Both the position numbers and the translations under genes were made by a program. From Blastochloris sp. (GTDB taxonomy: Bacteria > Verrucomicrobiota > Verrucomicrobiia > Methylacidiphilales > JAAUTS01), in assembly GCA_034440395.1 (NCBI GenBank), contig JAWXBW010000047.1, positions 5,567-69,566 of the forward strand: a stretch of DNA of 64,000 bases. The letters are read 5' to 3'. A model generated the notes under the pieces. It made no database searches, was not told the origin of the DNA, and saw nothing but the letters and a program-made list of their open reading frames with translations. Positions 6,929 to 51,503 of this stretch are shown here, piece by piece. Numbering within the stretch: the stretch's first letter is position 1; every line of letters starts with the position of its first letter.

Positions 6929-7135
6929 CAAAAAAGCCTCTAATGAATCTCGGTAACGCTTAATGATTGTGGTGAAGCATAGCTAATAATTTTTAGCTAA
7001 TGAATTTTTGTTTGTTATCGTCTATTTATGAGCATAGTTGAAATTAAGTATACAAAGCATTTGTCATCCGCAGAAAAATTAGTCTTAGCTCAAGACTAAT
7101 AGGGGGCAACACACAACCATTAAATTGATAAGCAC

Positions 7136-7429
7136 ATGATTGAAACTAACATTCATCCCCCAGTTATTGTGAAATGGTCTTGTTTTGCTGCAGCAATGGT
7201 GACGCTTTTGGGGTGTCTTTTTTCAAGCGTTACCCTGATTAATAATTACAGGACAGGCGAAGCCGTGTATCGCTCCAGCTTGCAACTAATTATTAAAGAA
7301 ACTATTACGAGGGAGTCTCAGCCAGAGAAGTTTGCGGAAACTCAAAAAGTGCTTGCTTTTACATTTCTCTATGATGGAGTTTTATTTTTAGTTTTTTTTA
7401 CTTTTTTTAGAAAATTAGGAGATTGGTAA
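7136..7429 (+). CDS. Small hypothetical membrane protein
   Basis: 97 aa with two hydrophobic segments (WSCFAAAMVTLLGCLFSSVTLI and LAFTFLYDGVLFLVFFTFF). Its stop overlaps the next start (TAATG). Confidence 0.5.
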   Translation: MIETNIHPPVIVKWSCFAAAMVTLLGCLFSSVTLINNYRTGEAVYRSSLQLIIKETITRESQPEKFAETQKVLAFTFLYDGVLFLVFFTFFRKLGDW

Positions 7430-7884
7430 TGATCGACCGAGAACAACGTGAGCTACTAGCTCATCGTCTTCTCCTGCTTGCCACCGGAAAGATCACGAAT
7501 GTTCAGTTTGATGACTCCCTTAATCTCCGCTCCTCAGACCGTGCTACCCGAAGAACCTACTGGGATGGGGTATGGCCATTATACGATGACCTCAGAGAGT
7601 ATAAATTGATCGGAAAGTATCGCTAGACCTATGAAGTAAAACGGACTGTTGTAAGAGTGATTTTATTTCTTAAGTCGGAAAGAGAATTTGAATGGAAGGC
7701 GGTGCCTTTGTATTGGAAGCTGCCCGTAGCTGTTCTAGGCTTTGTTACTTTCGGCTTAGTTTCTCGGTATTTTTACGAACATAGTTGGGAAAAACAGGCC
7801 GATATTTCTATCTGACCCTACTACCGCAGAAGCGATTTTGAAGCTGATTTGGCAGATCCTCCTTATTTAAAAGGAATTAACTAA
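7429..7884 (+). pseudogene. Conserved hypothetical gene interrupted by two in-frame stop codons
   Basis: An AGGAG site (7417-7421) lies 7 nt upstream of ATG 7429. The frame is otherwise open for 152 codons: MIDREQRELLAHRLLLLATGKITNVQFDD...WPLYDDLREYKLIGKYR*TYEVKRTVVRVILFLKSEREFEWKAVPLYWKLPVAVLGFVTFGLVSRYFYEHSWEKQADISI*PYYRRSDFEADLADPPYLKGIN*. The stops are TAG 7624-7626 and TGA 7813-7815. Confidence 0.6.
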
Positions 7885-40691: not shown

Positions 40692-41765
40692 ATGGGATTA
40701 ATCAATCAAATGCAGGACTCAGTTGTTCAGCCTGGCGACGGCATAGTCATGAGCAGCCGTGTTCGCTTAGCTAGAAACTTGCACAATAAACCTTTCCCAG
40801 GTTGGTTAAAGAAATCCCAACGTGAGGAACTCCTGCAAATCATCCAACCAGCCTTGCGTAACTTGCCCGAAATGAAGTCTTCCGCCATCCATCAAACGAT
40901 GGATGCCTTCAACCCTCTGGAAAAACAAATGCTGGTAGAGCAACATCTCATCAGCCGCGAACATGCCGCTAAAAACTCGGGCAGCGGTCTGGTGGTTAAT
41001 CAGGAACGCACTCTTAGCGTCATGATTAACGAAGAGGATCACTTGCGACTCCAATCTATCTATCCAGGCTTCCAGCTGGAAGCGGCTTGGGAAGTGATTG
41101 ATAAAATCGACACGGAGTTGGAAGAGGAGCTAGAATTTGCCTATTCCGCTACGCTAGGCTATCTAACGGCATGCCCAACGAATGTGGGCACAGGTATGCG
41201 CGCCTCTGCGATGTTACACTTACCTGGCTTGGTCTTGAGCGAACAGATCAATCAAGTCATAAAATCCGTCAACCAAATCGGGCTGGCCGTGCGTGGCCTC
41301 TATGGCGAAGGCACAGAAGCTCTCGGTAATTTATTCCAAATTTCTAACCAGATGACTCTGGGTGAAAGTGAGCGACAAATTCTTGATCGCCTGACGAAAG
41401 TAGTGAACCACTTAATCGAGCACGAGTTAAATGCCCGCCAAAAGTTACTCCAAGAAAAAGGTCGTATGGTGGCCGATCAACTAGGTCGTGCTTACGGTGT
41501 GATGCAGAACTCTTATTCCATCACGTCTAAAGAAGCACTCAATCTTCTTTCGCTCCTTATTTTAGGAGTGGACTTAGGAATTCTACCGAATAGTTTAAGG
41601 GAAAAGATTGATGAGTTATTTGTCCTTACCCAACCCGCTCATTTGCAACAAGCTGCTGCGCGCAAACTCAACGCCGATGAACGCGACGCTTTCCGTTCCG
41701 ATCTTTTACGTGATAAACTCAAATCTATCCCAGCTCCTAACATAAAAAAATTAAAACTTTTCTAA
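40692..41765 (+). CDS. mcsB: Protein arginine kinase McsB (ATP:guanido phosphotransferase)
   Basis: 357 aa with SSRVRLARNL, MINEEDHLRLQS and CPTNVGTGMRAS. Confidence 0.9.
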   Translation: MGLINQMQDSVVQPGDGIVMSSRVRLARNLHNKPFPGWLKKSQREELLQIIQPALRNLPEMKSSAIHQTMDAFNPLEKQMLVEQHLISREHAAKNSGSGLVVNQERTLSVMINEEDHLRLQSIYPGFQLEAAWEVIDKIDTELEEELEFAYSATLGYLTACPTNVGTGMRASAMLHLPGLVLSEQINQVIKSVNQIGLAVRGLYGEGTEALGNLFQISNQMTLGESERQILDRLTKVVNHLIEHELNARQKLLQEKGRMVADQLGRAYGVMQNSYSITSKEALNLLSLLILGVDLGILPNSLREKIDELFVLTQPAHLQQAAARKLNADERDAFRSDLLRDKLKSIPAPNIKKLKLF

Positions 41766-41795
41766 CCATTTGCACACACCAACAACCATTACATT

Positions 41796-44312
41796 ATGAA
41801 TAATTTTACTCCACGCGCTCAACAAGTTTTGGCTCTCGCCCGCAAGGAAGCCGATCGTTTTAACCATAATTACGTCGGAACAGAGCATCTCCTCCTCGGC
41901 CTGATCAAGCTCGGTCAAGGCGTTGCCGTGAACGTCTTACAAAAAATGGGTCTTGACCTTGAAACAGTCCGTATGGAAGTGGAAAAACAAGTCGGCTCTG
42001 GCCCCGACACTAAAATTTCTGGCAACATTCCTTACACACCTCGAGTAAAAAAAGTTCTAGCCCTTGCTGGTAAAGAAGCCAAAGCTCTCCACCACTCCTA
42101 CGTCGGCACGGAGCATATCTTGCTCGGACTCTTGCGTGAAGGTGATGGTGTGGCCGCACGTGTGCTAAAAACTCTGGACGTTGATCTCGAACGGGCTCGT
42201 AACGAAGTCTTAAAAGAGCTTGATCCTAATTTCGAAGGTTCTGAGCAAGAGGAAGATTTCTCTGGAGGCTCGCAGGAAGCAGCATCTCCTGCTGGCGGTT
42301 CCGCTGCGAGTAAAAAAGATGGAAAGACTCCAGCTCTAAAAGCCTTTGGGCGTGACTTAACGGAAATGGCCGCCAAGGGTGACCTCGATCCCGTCATTGG
42401 TCGTAAAAACGAGATCGAACGCGTGGTTCAGATTCTCTGCCGTCGCAGCAAGAATAATCCCGTCCTCATCGGCGAAGCTGGCGTGGGTAAGACCGCCATC
42501 GTAGAAGGCCTAGCTCAAGAGATCGTGGCGGGTAATGTGCCCGAACTCTTACGGGACAAAAAGGTGATCACCCTAGATTTGGCCCTGATGGTCGCAGGCA
42601 CTAAATACCGCGGACAATTTGAGGAGCGCATTAAAGCGGTCATGGAAGAAATACGTAAATCCAAAAATATTCTGCTCTTCATTGATGAGATGCATACCAT
42701 TGTGGGCGCAGGCTCAGCAGAAGGCGCTATGGATGCCTCAAACATTATCAAGCCCGCCCTCTCCCGCGGCGAGCTTCAGTGTATCGGTGCGACCACGCTG
42801 AACGAGTATCGGAAATATATCGAAAAAGATTCTGCCTTAGAACGCCGTTTCCAGAGCGTGAAGGTGGAGGCTCCTAGTGTTGAAGAAACTATTCTTATCT
42901 TAAAAGGTCTCCGCCCTAAATATGAACAGCATCACAAAGCTCGCATCACAGACGAAGCTCTGGTCGAAGCCACTAAGTTAAGCGACCGCTATCTCACGGG
43001 CAGATTTCTACCAGATAAAGCCATCGACATCATGGACGAGGCTGGTTCCCGCTCTCGCATCAAGGCCACCATGACACCCCCTGAATTAAAGACGATGGAG
43101 GCGGATATTGAAGTCATACGTCAGAGCAAAGAAACGGCGATTAAGGAACAGGACTTTGAAAAAGCTGCCTCGCTGCGCGACAACGAAAAAGCGGCTAAAC
43201 TGAAGCTTGAAACTAGTTTGAGTGATTGGCGCAAACATCGCGATGAACAAATTGTCGAAGTCGGTGCGGATGACATCATGTATGTCATTTCTAAATGGAC
43301 GGGTATTCCCCTTACCCGCTTGGAAGAAAAAGAAACAGAGCGCCTCATCACTATCGGAGATCAATTAAAAGATAAAGTGATCGGCCAAGAAGAAGGTGTG
43401 CAAGCCCTTGCCAAGGCTCTACGCCGTTCCCGTGCTGATTTAAAGGATCCGAAACGACCCATCGGCTCCTTTATTTTCCTCGGCCCCACCGGCGTTGGTA
43501 AAAGTCATTTAGCTAAGGCTCTCGCTCAACAAGTCTTCGGAGAGGCTGATGCCCTCATCCAGCTCGACATGAGCGAATACATGGAAAAGTTTAACGTCTC
43601 GCGCCTTGTCGGATCGCCTCCTGGCTATGTCGGGCACGAAGAAGGTGGCCAGCTCACGGAAAAAGTGCGGCGACGCCCTTACTGCGTCGTGCTGTTTGAC
43701 GAGATCGAGAAGGCACACCCTGATGTCTGGAACATCCTCCTGCAAATTCTGGAAGATGGACAGATCACGGACAGCCTTGGCCGTAAGATCGATTTCAGAA
43801 ATACCATCATCATCATGACCTCCAACGTGGGCGCAGAATTGATCAAGAAACAAAACGTGGTGGGATTCTCTGCCACCGACACGGATCAAACGAGTTACGA
43901 TGTGGTGAAAGAAAAACTCTTGGCGGAAGCGAAAAAAGTCTTCAAGCCCGAGTTCTTAAATCGTTTAACAGATATCATCGTGTTCCATCAACTTACACGC
44001 GAACACCTGAGTAAGATTGTCCATCTCGAAGTGGCTAAGGTTGAAGACCGTCTCAAATCGAGATCTATTTCCTTCAAGATCAGCCCTGAAGCCTTAGAAT
44101 ACCTGATCGATAAAGGTTACGATCCAGCCTATGGAGCGCGGCCTCTGCGGCGTGCAATTGAGAAGTACGTGGAAGATCCCATCGCTGAGGAGCTCATCCG
44201 CGGCACGATCAAGAGCAACTCCGTGGTTACGATTACGTTGAAGGATAAAGAATTAGTCTTCACCTCCGACTCTATTATTGAAATAGAGACCCTAAAAACT
44301 GGCAGTCTTTAA
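41796..44312 (+). CDS. clpC: ATP-dependent Clp protease ATP-binding subunit ClpC
   Basis: 838 aa with a double Clp_N repeat, GEAGVGKTAIVEGLA, a UVR-like linker (KEQDFEKAASLRDNE), GPTGVGKSHLAKALA and SEYMEK. Confidence 0.95.
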   Translation: MNNFTPRAQQVLALARKEADRFNHNYVGTEHLLLGLIKLGQGVAVNVLQKMGLDLETVRMEVEKQVGSGPDTKISGNIPYTPRVKKVLALAGKEAKALHHSYVGTEHILLGLLREGDGVAARVLKTLDVDLERARNEVLKELDPNFEGSEQEEDFSGGSQEAASPAGGSAASKKDGKTPALKAFGRDLTEMAAKGDLDPVIGRKNEIERVVQILCRRSKNNPVLIGEAGVGKTAIVEGLAQEIVAGNVPELLRDKKVITLDLALMVAGTKYRGQFEERIKAVMEEIRKSKNILLFIDEMHTIVGAGSAEGAMDASNIIKPALSRGELQCIGATTLNEYRKYIEKDSALERRFQSVKVEAPSVEETILILKGLRPKYEQHHKARITDEALVEATKLSDRYLTGRFLPDKAIDIMDEAGSRSRIKATMTPPELKTMEADIEVIRQSKETAIKEQDFEKAASLRDNEKAAKLKLETSLSDWRKHRDEQIVEVGADDIMYVISKWTGIPLTRLEEKETERLITIGDQLKDKVIGQEEGVQALAKALRRSRADLKDPKRPIGSFIFLGPTGVGKSHLAKALAQQVFGEADALIQLDMSEYMEKFNVSRLVGSPPGYVGHEEGGQLTEKVRRRPYCVVLFDEIEKAHPDVWNILLQILEDGQITDSLGRKIDFRNTIIIMTSNVGAELIKKQNVVGFSATDTDQTSYDVVKEKLLAEAKKVFKPEFLNRLTDIIVFHQLTREHLSKIVHLEVAKVEDRLKSRSISFKISPEALEYLIDKGYDPAYGARPLRRAIEKYVEDPIAEELIRGTIKSNSVVTITLKDKELVFTSDSIIEIETLKTGSL

Positions 44313-47216: not shown

Positions 47217-47264
47217 TCACTATTCCATGTATAGTTCTTTATTCAGTTACACCATTTGTGGTGT
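47217..47264 (+). promoter_or_regulatory. Candidate tandem NrdR boxes upstream of nrdB
   Basis: Box 2 at 47249-47264 is ACACCATTTGTGGTGT, with perfect 6-bp inverted arms and 12/16 matches to the published NrdR consensus acaCwAtATaTwGtgt. Box 1 at 47217-47232 is TCACTATTCCATGTAT (10/16). The centre-to-centre distance is 32 bp, the usual phasing. Confidence 0.4.
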
Positions 47265-47383: not shown

Positions 47384-48526
47384 ATGATAGCACCAGCAAC
47401 TGACGAACTTTTAGATCAAATCAATGAACGCGAAGAGGGTAACTTTGTTTACATCTCTTTCCGCAACAAATCTTTCAAGCTCGACCGTAACAAAGCACGT
47501 GCACGTAAAGACGGTAAACGGGTCATCAACGGCGTGCGCACGCCCGAGCTGAATATCATGCCCCTGAAATATCACGAGGCTTATCGTATCTACAAACAGA
47601 TGAAGGCAAACCATTGGGAGCCTGACGTGATCGACATGACAAAAGATTGCACCACATGGAACTCTGATTCCCTGAGCCCGAAGGAGCGTTGGATCATCGA
47701 AATGGGTGTGGGTTATTTTTCCGCCGCTGAAGGCATTGTGGGAGACAGTGTGCTGCACGCCATCGAAAATAACCTGACTGCCGCTGAATTAAAACACGCC
47801 TCTCTGCGCTGGATCGCTGAAGAATCCATCCACATGGACTCCCTCCTCCACATCATCGGCAGCCTCAACATCGATCAAGATGAAGTCACTGCTAAGTTCA
47901 GCGATATCCCCTCTATCGCACGCAAGAATGAGTTTATCACCCGTCATATGCCCGAACTTAAAATGGGCTTAGACCTCACCATAACGGAGAATAAACAAAA
48001 GTTTGCCAAAGCTCTCTTTGGCATTTCTCAAGTTTTAGAAGGCACTCAGTTCTACGCCCTCTTCGCCATGATCCTCTCTCTGCACCGCCAAAATAAAATG
48101 ACCGGCGTTGGCCAGATGTTCCAATATACCCTGCGTGATGAATCCAACCACATCGCCCTAGGCCGCTACATCTTTGAACAACTCGTGGCAGAAAATCCTG
48201 ACATCTGGACGACAGAGTTCAAAGAGCACCTACGCGACTTCATGCGCGAAGGCGTTGCTTTAGAAAAAGAATTCGTCTGCGATTGCTTACCAGAAGACGC
48301 CGTCGGCATGACCCAACAAGAATTCCTCGACTATGTGGACTATAATGCCGACCGCCGCCTCATCAGCGTAGGCCTAGAGCCCCTTTCCACCATTACATCT
48401 AATCCCTTTCTCTGGCTAGATGAAGTGATCTTCCTCAAGAAAGAGAAAAACTTCTTCGAGACACGCGTGACCGAATACCAAACAGGCGGCAGCATGCGCA
48501 ACAGCAACGAGGATGATTTAATTTAG
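47384..48526 (+). CDS. nrdB: Ribonucleotide reductase small subunit, class Ic-like (R2c-type)
   Basis: 380 aa with metal ligands FSAAE116GIV, AE146E147SIH150, VLEGTQFY and RDESNHI. The E116-to-E147 spacing is 31 residues, as in E. coli D84/E115. The position of E. coli Y122 is Leu154 (CTC 47843-47845). Confidence 0.85.
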   Translation: MIAPATDELLDQINEREEGNFVYISFRNKSFKLDRNKARARKDGKRVINGVRTPELNIMPLKYHEAYRIYKQMKANHWEPDVIDMTKDCTTWNSDSLSPKERWIIEMGVGYFSAAEGIVGDSVLHAIENNLTAAELKHASLRWIAEESIHMDSLLHIIGSLNIDQDEVTAKFSDIPSIARKNEFITRHMPELKMGLDLTITENKQKFAKALFGISQVLEGTQFYALFAMILSLHRQNKMTGVGQMFQYTLRDESNHIALGRYIFEQLVAENPDIWTTEFKEHLRDFMREGVALEKEFVCDCLPEDAVGMTQQEFLDYVDYNADRRLISVGLEPLSTITSNPFLWLDEVIFLKKEKNFFETRVTEYQTGGSMRNSNEDDLI

Positions 48527-48579: not shown

Positions 48580-51429
48580 ATGACCACTGCTCTTTCTTCC
48601 CTTGAAGTCATCAACATTGACGAAGTCAACTCTGGCTTTCCCCAAGTTATTCGTCGAGATCTCTCCCATGCCGAATCTGGTAAACCGCGCGTCGTGCCTT
48701 GGATGGGCTATAAAATCGAGCTCGCTGTCCAAGCCGCTTGCGTAGAATACAAGGTTGACCCTGCTATCGGTTCCCAAGTCCGGGCCGAGATCGAGTTCCG
48801 CATGAAGAAAGATCGACCCCTCTTCATCCACATCGAACAACTCCAAGACCTGGTCGAAGAAACCCTCATGGACATCAACCAGCCCCGCGTCGCCCTAGCC
48901 TACGGTAAATACCGTGCTAAACGCGCCGCTCTGCGTGAACTGGAAGTTGCCCAATCCATCAACGACAAGCCTGACCAACTTGAACTCGCCACCCGCGAAC
49001 AGCTCTCCGACATCCGCGCCCGCATATCCTACGCTAAGATCAATCTCAAACTCACTCTGACCGAGAACGAAATCATCGCCCGCCTCTTGCGTAGCACCTC
49101 CATGTCCCTTTCCGCATCGGAACAACGCGAGGCCATTATCCTCAACGCCAAAAACCTCCTCGACACCGATGCTGATTCTCGCTTCCTCGCTGGCCGCATC
49201 CTCCTCACCTACATCTACGAGGAAACGCTCAACTGGAAAATCTCCGACGGCATCGACGCTCTCAAAGAGGCCCATCGTGCAGCCTTCATCGCCTACATCC
49301 CGAAAGGCATCGCCGTTAATCGCTTAGATAAACGCCTAGCCGACTTTGACCTAAAAGAACTTTCCGAAGCCATCGACCCCTTTGCCGATTTACAGTTCGA
49401 CTTCCTCGGCGTCCAAACCCTCTACGACCGCTACCTCATTCACCACAAAGAAGACCAAGTTAAGAGCGGCAAGAAACGCCTTGAAGCTCCCCAGATCTTC
49501 TGGATGCGCGTCGCTATGGGTTTAGCTATTCTAGAAAAAGATAAAAACAAACGCGCCGTAGAATTCTATAACGTCTATAAAACCAAGCGCGCCTGCTCCT
49601 CCACCCCCACCCTCTTTAACGCAGGCACCCTCCACTCCCAACTCTCCAGTTGTTACCTGCTCTATTGTGGCGACAGCATTGAAGAAATAACCGAAACCTG
49701 GCGCCGCTTTTCCCTTCTCTCTAAATGGGCAGGTGGCCTCGGCTGCTCTTGGTCCGCCGTTCGTGGCTCTGGGGCTCACATCCACGGCACCAACGGCGAA
49801 TCCTCCGGCGTCATCCCCTTCCTCAAAGTCTCTAACGACATCGCCATCGCCGTGAACCAAGGCGGCAAACGCCCAGGAGCACTTTGCAGCTACCTAGAAC
49901 TCTGGCACATGGACATCGAGGACTTCCTCGACCTCCGTAAAGAAACCGGTGATGAACGTCGCCGCACCCACAATATGAACACGGCCAACTGGATTCCAGA
50001 CTTGTTCATGAAACGACTCAATGACATCTCCGAAGGTAAACTTCCTAAAGATGCCACTTGGACACTCTTCCGCACCAACGACGTGCGCGACCTCCCAGAA
50101 ACTTACGGTAAAAACTTCGAGACCCGCTACCTCGCCTACGAAGCCCTCTTCCAAGAAGGCAAAATCTACGGCCGTCAAGTTCGCGTCCTCGCCCTCTGGA
50201 AAAAGATGATCGAGATGATCTTTGAAACCGGTCACGCTTGGATGACTTGGAAAGATCCCGCCAACATCCGCTCACCACAAGACCACGCCGGCGTTATCCA
50301 TAACTCCAACCTCTGCACCGAGATTGAACTGAACACCAGCAGTGATGAAGTCGCCGTCTGCAACCTCGCTTCCATTAACCTCATCGAACACCTCAAAGAC
50401 GACGGCAGCCTCGACCATGATAAACTACGGGACTCCGTCAGCATCGTCATGCGTATGCTGGATAACGTGATCGACATCAACTACTACCCAGTCGAAGCCG
50501 CCGCCAACTCCAACTACCGCCACCGACCCGTAGGCTTAGGCGTCATGGGGTTACAAGACGTGCTCTATAAAAAGCGCATCCCCTTTGACTCCCTTGAGGC
50601 CGTTGATTTAAACGACGAGATTATGGAAGCGATCGCTTTTCATGCCTACTCCGCCTCCAGCGATTTGGCAGCAGAGCGTGGAGCTTACTCCAGCTTCAAA
50701 GGTTCTAAGTGGGATCGTGGCATGATGCCCATTGATACTCTCAACCTCCTAGAATCTGAACGCGGCACCCCTGTCTTAGTCGATCGTAAAACCCGCTTAG
50801 ATTGGAATGGCCTGCGCGAAAAAATACAACGTCAAGGCATGAGAAATTCTAACTGCCTAGCCATCGCCCCCACCGCCACCATCTCCAACATCATGGGCTC
50901 CACCCCTTGTATCGAACCCACCTACAAGCACATCCACACCAAATCTAACCTCTCTGGAGACTTTGTCCGCACCAACGATTTCTTAGTCAAAGAACTCATG
51001 GCCTTAGGCTTATGGGATGAAGAAATGCTGGCCGACATGAAATACTTCGACGGCTCCATCCAACCCATTGAACGTATTCCCGACGACATCAAAAACATCT
51101 TTAAAACCGCTTTTGAAATCGAGCCTACTTGGATTCTTCAATGCGCCGCCGTTCGTCAAAAATGGATAGACCAATCCCAGTCCGTTAACCTCTTCCTAGC
51201 CGAGAACAACGCCCGCGCCGCCTCCTTCATGTATCGCGAAGCCTGGGAACGCGGCTTAAAAACTACCTACTACCTACGCACCATCAATAAGAGCGGAATT
51301 GACAGTGCCAACCGCGAGCGGAAGAAAGTCGATCCTACGGGAATCAAACGCGAAGCCACTGAAGCAGAAATCAACGCTTGCTCCATCGAAGCCATGCGCA
51401 GCGGCGGCACCTGCGAGAGCTGTCAGTAA
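48580..51429 (+). CDS. nrdA: Ribonucleotide-diphosphate reductase large subunit (class I)
   Basis: 949 aa with an ATP-cone-like N-terminus (VIRRD...IEQLQDLVEETLM), PTLFNAGT, NLCTEI and a C-terminal redox pair CESCQ. Confidence 0.95.
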   Translation: MTTALSSLEVINIDEVNSGFPQVIRRDLSHAESGKPRVVPWMGYKIELAVQAACVEYKVDPAIGSQVRAEIEFRMKKDRPLFIHIEQLQDLVEETLMDINQPRVALAYGKYRAKRAALRELEVAQSINDKPDQLELATREQLSDIRARISYAKINLKLTLTENEIIARLLRSTSMSLSASEQREAIILNAKNLLDTDADSRFLAGRILLTYIYEETLNWKISDGIDALKEAHRAAFIAYIPKGIAVNRLDKRLADFDLKELSEAIDPFADLQFDFLGVQTLYDRYLIHHKEDQVKSGKKRLEAPQIFWMRVAMGLAILEKDKNKRAVEFYNVYKTKRACSSTPTLFNAGTLHSQLSSCYLLYCGDSIEEITETWRRFSLLSKWAGGLGCSWSAVRGSGAHIHGTNGESSGVIPFLKVSNDIAIAVNQGGKRPGALCSYLELWHMDIEDFLDLRKETGDERRRTHNMNTANWIPDLFMKRLNDISEGKLPKDATWTLFRTNDVRDLPETYGKNFETRYLAYEALFQEGKIYGRQVRVLALWKKMIEMIFETGHAWMTWKDPANIRSPQDHAGVIHNSNLCTEIELNTSSDEVAVCNLASINLIEHLKDDGSLDHDKLRDSVSIVMRMLDNVIDINYYPVEAAANSNYRHRPVGLGVMGLQDVLYKKRIPFDSLEAVDLNDEIMEAIAFHAYSASSDLAAERGAYSSFKGSKWDRGMMPIDTLNLLESERGTPVLVDRKTRLDWNGLREKIQRQGMRNSNCLAIAPTATISNIMGSTPCIEPTYKHIHTKSNLSGDFVRTNDFLVKELMALGLWDEEMLADMKYFDGSIQPIERIPDDIKNIFKTAFEIEPTWILQCAAVRQKWIDQSQSVNLFLAENNARAASFMYREAWERGLKTTYYLRTINKSGIDSANRERKKVDPTGIKREATEAEINACSIEAMRSGGTCESCQ

Positions 51430-51468: not shown

Positions 51469-51503
51469 AACCCCGTCCCGCCTCAGGCTGGGCGGGGTTT
51501 TTT
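51469..51503 (+). terminator. Rho-independent terminator of nrdA
   Basis: AACCCCGTCC (51469-51478) pairs with GGGCGGGGTT (51490-51499). The T run covers 51498-51503. Confidence 0.75.

Follow-up and report, generated by a model that had tools for sequence, protein, structure and literature searches.

A predicted class Ic ribonucleotide reductase small subunit with leucine at the radical site, encoded ahead of nrdA in a Verrucomicrobiota-type locus

The small subunit of the Chlamydia trachomatis ribonucleotide reductase (RNR), Ct R2c, operates with a Mn(IV)/Fe(III) cofactor, whose chemistry was established by Jiang et al. 2007 and in subsequent studies (for summaries, see PMC8463856 and PMC7239806). 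It has no Tyr at the radical site, Phe127 occupying the position of Tyr122 in the Escherichia coli protein, and a 2021 review discusses class Ic through C. trachomatis only (PMC8463856). On the basis of RNRdb, subclass Ic has been defined by “Phe, Leu, or Val” at the Tyr site, a definition attributed to Lundin et al. 2009, and the NrdBzc row of the corresponding table lists the ligands E,E,H,E,E,H together with second-sphere E and D (PMC6370689, including Table 4). Leu/Ile/Val substitutions in R2c are likewise mentioned in the passage of PMC3824934 that cites Högbom 2010. The range Phe/Leu/Val(/Ile) for class Ic is thus already in the literature (PMC6370689, PMC3824934, PMC9531940); the words Phe, Leu and class Ic do not occur in the text of the RNRdb paper (PMC2795772).

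Here, we analyse a NrdB of 380 aa encoded at 47384..48526 (+ strand) of the window, by which we mean the whole 64-kb stretch of DNA under study (64,000 nucleotides). The protein agrees exactly with the published NrdBzc definition, including the E,E,H,E,E,H pattern and the second-sphere residues E and D, and displays no difference from it in any sequence criterion. Because Leu is listed in this definition, the Leu variant is catalogued rather than new, and this NrdB is an unremarkable example of a variant already documented within a known subclass, one of very many in Verrucomicrobiota. We found no published biochemistry or structure of a Leu-type R2c, and the Tyr-less R2 structures recovered by our PDB search comprise only Phe-type Ct R2c entries (plus the engineered F127Y variant) and 6Y2N.

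Metal ligands, radical site and fold of NrdB

The nrdB start codon is preceded by GGGAG 8 nt upstream, and the protein is identical to a NrdB already deposited at NCBI (MDZ4788825.1). Its single Pfam domain is PF00268 (Ribonuc_red_sm; residues 56-337, E 3e-67). Among PDB sequences, the best HMMER matches are the Ct R2c entries 4D8F, 1SYY, and 2ANI (E ~1e-75), with 40% identity over 342 aligned positions. They are followed by the Phe-type R2 6Y2N (E 1e-66), which we take to be Saccharopolyspora erythraea R2c. The HMMER alignment with Ct R2c is gap-free from residue 33 to ~190 and sets “EESIHMDSLLHI” of NrdB against “EEAVHTHTFLYI” of Ct R2c, thereby placing L154 on F127. In 2ANI, the engineered F127Y variant of Ct R2c, a Tyr occupies this same column.

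The complete dimetal ligand set can be read from a MAFFT L-INS-i alignment of NrdB with E. coli K-12 NrdB, Ct R2c, and 12 diverse relatives. The first ligand is E116 (codon GAA, 47729..47731, +; motif FSAAEGIV), a Glu replacing Asp, which aligns with Ct E89 and E. coli D84 and is placed identically by HMMER. Ligands 2 and 3 are E147 (Ct E120, E. coli E115) and H150 (Ct H123, E. coli H118), located in the motif EESIH together with the second-sphere residue E146 (47819..47833, +). Ligand 4 is E219 (48038..48040, +; Ct E193, E. coli E204), while ligands 5 and 6 are E253 (Ct E227, E. coli E238) and H256 (Ct H230, E. coli H241), encoded at 48137..48151 (+) with the second-sphere D252. The radical site is taken by L154 (codon CTC, 47843..47845, +), which falls on Ct F127 and E. 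coli Y122 in both alignments. Thus, the two codons named in an earlier note, made from the sequence before any alignment, are exact and correctly assigned, as is its Glu-to-Glu spacing of 31 residues between E116 and E147; the register check it called for, against E. coli NrdB and Ct R2c, returns Leu and not Tyr, Glu and not Asp.

The residues of the electron-transfer route are equally conserved. W78 (47615..47617, +) corresponds to the electron relay Trp (Ct W51, E. coli W48) and Y365 (48476..48478, +) to the C-terminal radical-transfer Tyr (Ct Y338, E. coli Y356) in the MAFFT alignment, and both are invariant among the 56 sequences aligned for structure prediction. Further, Y248 (48125..48127, +) aligns with Ct Y222 by HMMER (QYTLRDE versus QYILRDE) and is invariant in the clade. 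Ct Y222 is implicated in the activation electron relay of Ct R2c.

An AlphaFold2 (AF2) model built from the 56-sequence diverse alignment reaches a pLDDT of 87.2 and a pTM of 0.86; it replaces an earlier model from 21 close homologues (at least 77% identity), which was unusable at a pLDDT of 56. In a Foldseek search of the PDB with this model, C. trachomatis NrdB structures fill the first 13 places at TM 0.89-0.93, covering the Mn/Fe, Mn(II)Fe(II), and apo states as well as the F127Y variant. Superposition on 4M1I, 4D8F, and 1SYY gives a TM of 0.90 (on target) and an rmsd of 1.8 Å. 6Y2N comes after the Ct entries (TM 0.95 on target), and class Ia proteins appear only later. Like NrdB, 6Y2N is Tyr-less and has a Glu first ligand, but it carries Phe at the radical site.

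Every sequence-level feature of class Ic that could be tested is present in NrdB: the RNR small-chain (ferritin-like) fold (PF00268; TM 0.90 to Ct R2c), a Glu first ligand within the full set E,E,H,E,E,H, a residue of the redox-inert group Phe/Leu/Val at the E. coli Tyr122 position, a Glu preceding ligand 2 and an Asp preceding ligand 5, the equivalents of Trp48 and C-terminal Tyr356, and an NrdA with intact catalytic residues encoded 53 bp downstream. Together with the best matches to Ct R2c, these features support the assignment of NrdB, by its sequence, as a class Ic beta subunit (R2c, or NrdBzc in RNRdb) and uphold the earlier reading of a class Ic-like protein that does without a tyrosyl radical. 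The hallmarks of the other subclasses are missing. NrdB has neither the Asp first ligand nor the radical-site Tyr of class Ia/Ib (E116, L154), and it does not combine Glu with Tyr and a second-sphere Cys/Ser as class Id (NrdBi) does (L154, E146). The carboxylates at ligand positions 2, 4, and 5, which are lost in class Ie (NrdFe; Q/V, S/P, and K, respectively), are all present.

A further difference from Ct R2c lies at the N-terminus, where residues 14-34 (47423..47485, +) are predicted by AF2 to form a three-stranded beta meander absent from the chlamydial protein. Its strands comprise residues 14-18, 21-26, and 29-34, the block is modelled at a pLDDT of ~90, and a helix follows. Since residue 33 of NrdB aligns with residue 6 of Ct R2c, the extension amounts to ~27 residues; the 55 residues previously given hold only when counted from the start of the Pfam domain and not relative to Ct R2c. 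6Y2N also has no such extension. Residues 15-34, with the motif EREEGNxVVYxFRNKTFRL, are conserved among clade members that are at least 77% identical, and the extension is missing in P0125, a Leu-type representative that is ~50% identical. The extension has no Pfam family match. We also considered an ATP-cone, for which the segment is too short, as the Pfam ATP-cone spans ~88 positions.

Distribution of the Glu/Leu form

E116 and L154 occur together in all of the 120 nearest 90%-identity clusters (77-100% identical to NrdB), which shows that the two residues are not a sequencing accident. At larger distance, we tallied the combination of first ligand and radical-site residue in the 150 best-matching representatives of 50%-identity clusters. 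Glu with Leu was found in 26 of these representatives and constitutes the largest Tyr-less group among them, followed by Glu with Phe (15), Val (5), and Ile (2). Asp with Tyr is present in 36 representatives, and a further 6 combine Glu with Tyr. The combination of Glu and Leu is moreover invariant in the 16 genome loci compared, which belong to Verrucomicrobiota and Fimbriimonadaceae.

Among species-representative genomes, carriers of Glu and Leu are Verrucomicrobiales, Chthoniobacterales, Pelagicoccus, and metagenome-assembled genomes (MAGs) labelled Akkermansia, as well as one MAG labelled Chlamydiae and one Fimbriimonadaceae MAG. Glu with Phe is carried by Patescibacteria, Krumholzibacteriia, and Bacteriovoracaceae in the same set of genomes, and the Asp/Tyr relatives, at ~38% identity, are mostly from Proteobacteria. 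A rough neighbour-joining (NJ) tree, computed without support values, groups the Leu proteins as a monophyletic clade, of which Ct R2c is not the sister lineage, and renders the Tyr-less NrdBz proteins polyphyletic. Within this clade, which is mainly verrucomicrobial, Leu is fixed.

Two further kinds of protein were noted among the representatives. P0158, P0168, P0186, P0194, and P0221 are NrdBz-like and combine a retained Tyr with a Glu first ligand, a pattern intermediate between the Ia-type and Ic-type residue sets. P0121 (755 aa), a member of the representative library from outside the window, contains two tandem NrdB domains in one polypeptide. Its first domain has the full W/E/E/H/L/E/E/H/Y set, whereas the second is degenerate, with most metal ligands gone. 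By sequence, P0121 resembles a Leu-type beta subunit joined covalently to a beta-prime partner, although an assembly or gene-calling artefact is possible.

The deposited protein MDZ4788825.1 is filed under a MAG named Blastochloris sp., an alphaproteobacterial name. In species-representative genomes, all relatives at 77-88% identity bear labels of the PVC superphylum, nearly all of them Verrucomicrobiota and one a MAG labelled Chlamydiae, and the Blastochloris label of the bin is therefore doubtful.

By its gene content, this genome of a free-living member of Verrucomicrobiota, in its lifestyle unlike C. trachomatis, would make deoxynucleotides aerobically with a Tyr-radical-free reductase of the class Ic type. 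A reconstruction credits the chlamydial ancestor with a class Ic RNR (PMC9816063), and the presence of such an enzyme in Verrucomicrobiota fits the link of this phylum to Chlamydiae within the PVC superphylum. The locus reveals no new kind of enzyme and its practical value is limited. The Leu clade nevertheless provides a large natural set of R2c variants, apparently uncharacterised experimentally, which could be used to probe how Mn/Fe selectivity and the lifetime of the cofactor in its oxidised state depend on the radical-site residue and the pocket around it.

Predicted cofactor and competing readings

In sequence and model, E116, E147, H150, E219, E253, and H256 make up a complete four-Glu/two-His dimetal site, and L154 puts an aliphatic, non-oxidisable side chain where class Ia and Ib enzymes hold the tyrosyl radical. 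Modelled on Ct R2c, the oxidising equivalent would be stored on the metal cluster, most probably as Mn(IV)/Fe(III), in which Mn would occupy site 1, the site adjoining L154, and we infer by the same analogy a heterobimetallic Mn/Fe cofactor for NrdB. To assemble the cluster, Mn(II)/Fe(II) may react with O2, pass through a Mn(IV)/Fe(IV) state, and end as Mn(IV)/Fe(III), the extra electron being supplied via W78 and Y248. During turnover, the cluster would be reversibly reduced via W78, the C-terminal Y365, and then Y898/Y897 of NrdA, thereby generating a thiyl radical at NrdA C579 that would start nucleotide reduction. In this scheme Leu, like Phe, would serve only as a redox-inert hydrophobic filler. 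As the homology is at the level of 40% identity and the Leu clade is not the sister of Ct R2c, this transfer of the cofactor spans ~60% sequence divergence.

The alternative that survives best retains a class I RNR free of a Tyr radical but gives it an oxidant unlike that of Ct R2c, be it the Mn2(IV/III) cluster known from class Id or diiron in a high-valent state. Class Id proteins also combine a Glu first ligand with a metal-centred oxidant in place of a tyrosyl radical (PMC6370689 Table 4; PMC7239806), metal centres are difficult to assign a priori from sequence or structure, the ligand set included (PMC4118035), and the Leu clade has second-shell substitutions of its own besides its separate position from Ct R2c in the NJ tree. 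On the other hand, NrdB shares with NrdBzc a second-sphere Glu ahead of ligand 2, where NrdBi has Cys/Ser; class Id enzymes also keep the Tyr. Moreover, the nearest neighbours of NrdB in both sequence and fold are Mn/Fe enzymes rather than class Id structures, and the class Id entries 6CWO and 6CWP, the latter a Mn2(IV/III) protein, match only with E ~1e-11 to 1e-9 compared to 1e-75 for Ct R2c. We consequently regard a different oxidant as unlikely and prefer the Mn/Fe cofactor of Ct R2c.

The substitutions of the Leu clade are nevertheless distinctive. About 20 positions differ between the clade and its Phe-, Val-, or Ile-type relatives, some of them near the site: G117 (Ser in the others), S153 (Thr), Q222 (Phe/Leu/Trp), and L226 (Gly), with T249 as a further substitution close to the metals. 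Relative to Ct R2c, not only is Phe127 exchanged for Leu, but the pocket residues Ile223 and Phe196 are replaced by T249 and Q222. It is conceivable, though we consider it quite improbable, that the Leu clade, with L154, T249, Q222, G117, L226, and the beta meander as its own features, departs from the Phe-type enzyme of C. trachomatis in how it assembles or tunes a metal-centred oxidant; it might, for instance, select other metals or hold a homodinuclear cluster of Mn or Fe. If so, “class Ic by sequence” would be heterogeneous in its cofactor chemistry.

A non-catalytic role, either as an R2lox-type oxidase or as an inactive beta-prime partner, is far less credible. R2lox proteins share with NrdB the four Glu and two His ligands and the lack of a radical Tyr, their cofactor is Mn/Fe, and NrdB does match the Sulfolobus acidocaldarius R2lox structure 7QBK weakly (E 2e-9). 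The Ct R2c match, however, is better by 66 orders of magnitude. R2lox proteins are not RNRs and have no C-terminal Tyr (PMC3824934), whereas Y365 and the tail NFFETRVTEYQ are conserved in NrdB; likewise, the position of Ct F197 is Ala in R2lox (PMC4118035) but F223 in NrdB. R2lox genes are not linked to nrdA, while here nrdA follows 53 bp downstream in the same orientation, and it likewise follows nrdB in those Leu-clade loci that yielded both genes. With all six metal ligands intact as well, we reject both as effectively refuted, and the earlier statement that the gene encodes an RNR subunit and not an R2lox-type oxidase stands on Y365, F223, and the adjacent nrdA. Finally, that Leu stems from a register or sequence error and Tyr really sits at the radical site is next to impossible and was rejected, since three independent alignments (HMMER, MAFFT, tblastn) agree on Leu, the F127Y mutant 2ANI marks the column, and 120/120 close clusters have Leu.

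The nrdB-nrdA locus and neighbouring DNA

As the earlier note had observed, a full-length nrdA lies directly downstream of nrdB, from which it is separated by 53 bp (48580..51429, +). It encodes a large (alpha) subunit of 949 aa, in which Pfam recognises an N-terminal ATP-cone, Ribonuc_red_lgN, and the RNR barrel (E 2e-184). The closest solved structure is 5IM3, a ribonucleoside-diphosphate reductase of 963 aa (E 1e-261) that we assume to be the Pseudomonas aeruginosa enzyme. NrdA residues C358, N577, C579, E581, and C594 align with E. coli C225, N437, C439, E441, and C462, and Y897-Y898 with E. coli Y730-Y731, while the C-terminus (...GGTCESCQ) keeps the Cys pair (CESC). With its catalytic Cys, Asn, and Glu residues, its two adjacent Tyr, and both C-terminal Cys all kept, the adjacent NrdA is, as judged from its sequence, catalytically complete. 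An ATP-cone is common to NrdA and its C. trachomatis counterpart. Only one cone is detected in NrdA, whereas Ct R1 has three.

A terminator-like GC hairpin followed by a T-run is located 3' of nrdA (51475..51498, +; consensus scan only). We consider it highly probable that nrdB and nrdA form a two-gene operon for an oxygen-dependent class I RNR of subclass Ic. Among the 20 largest ORFs of the 64-kb window (each at least 300 aa), none encodes a second RNR.

The order of the two genes, described as unusual in the earlier note, is indeed a real difference. Leu-clade loci in which both genes were found have nrdB before nrdA, in contrast to the Phe-type and Asp/Tyr relatives, in which nrdA comes first where both are present, as it also does in C. 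trachomatis. The order nrdB-nrdA is therefore a trait of the clade, which would have inverted the arrangement. In some Leu-clade relatives, an ORF of ~189 aa is found between nrdB and nrdA (7098-7667 in locus L079, 7187-7753 in L010); by eye, its translation looks like a dCTP deaminase. In L010, this ORF is followed by ORFs resembling a periplasmic binding protein and an ABC-transporter permease.

Upstream of nrdB, a 16-bp palindrome, ACACCATTTGTGGTGT, resembles an NrdR box and lies 136 bp 5' of the start codon (47249..47264). Only 3 sites in the 64-kb window, ACACCATTTGTGGTGT among them, agree at 12 or more of 16 positions with the consensus ACACWATATATWGTGT, which reportedly goes back to Rodionov and Gelfand in 2005. 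By a looser consensus score, boxes of the form CCAC..GTGG or ACAC..GTGT precede nrdB in 9 of the 12 loci of the Leu clade; paired boxes, 31 bp apart, are present in two loci (L013, 5785-5831; L079, 5540-5586), a spacing typical of NrdR operators. A strict NrdR-box regular expression finds the box only in the window. A motif search of the window detected no nrdR gene, and a sigma-70 scan upstream of nrdB gave no convincing promoter. An Rfam scan of the whole window returned no match, and hence no riboswitch ahead of nrdB.

Further upstream in the window (40692-44312), an ATP:guanido phosphotransferase gene directly precedes a gene for an AAA+ chaperone of 838 aa. On reading the translations, the former appears McsB-like and the latter ClpC-like. 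The two genes presumably represent the pairing of protein-arginine kinase with ClpC that is better known from Firmicutes.
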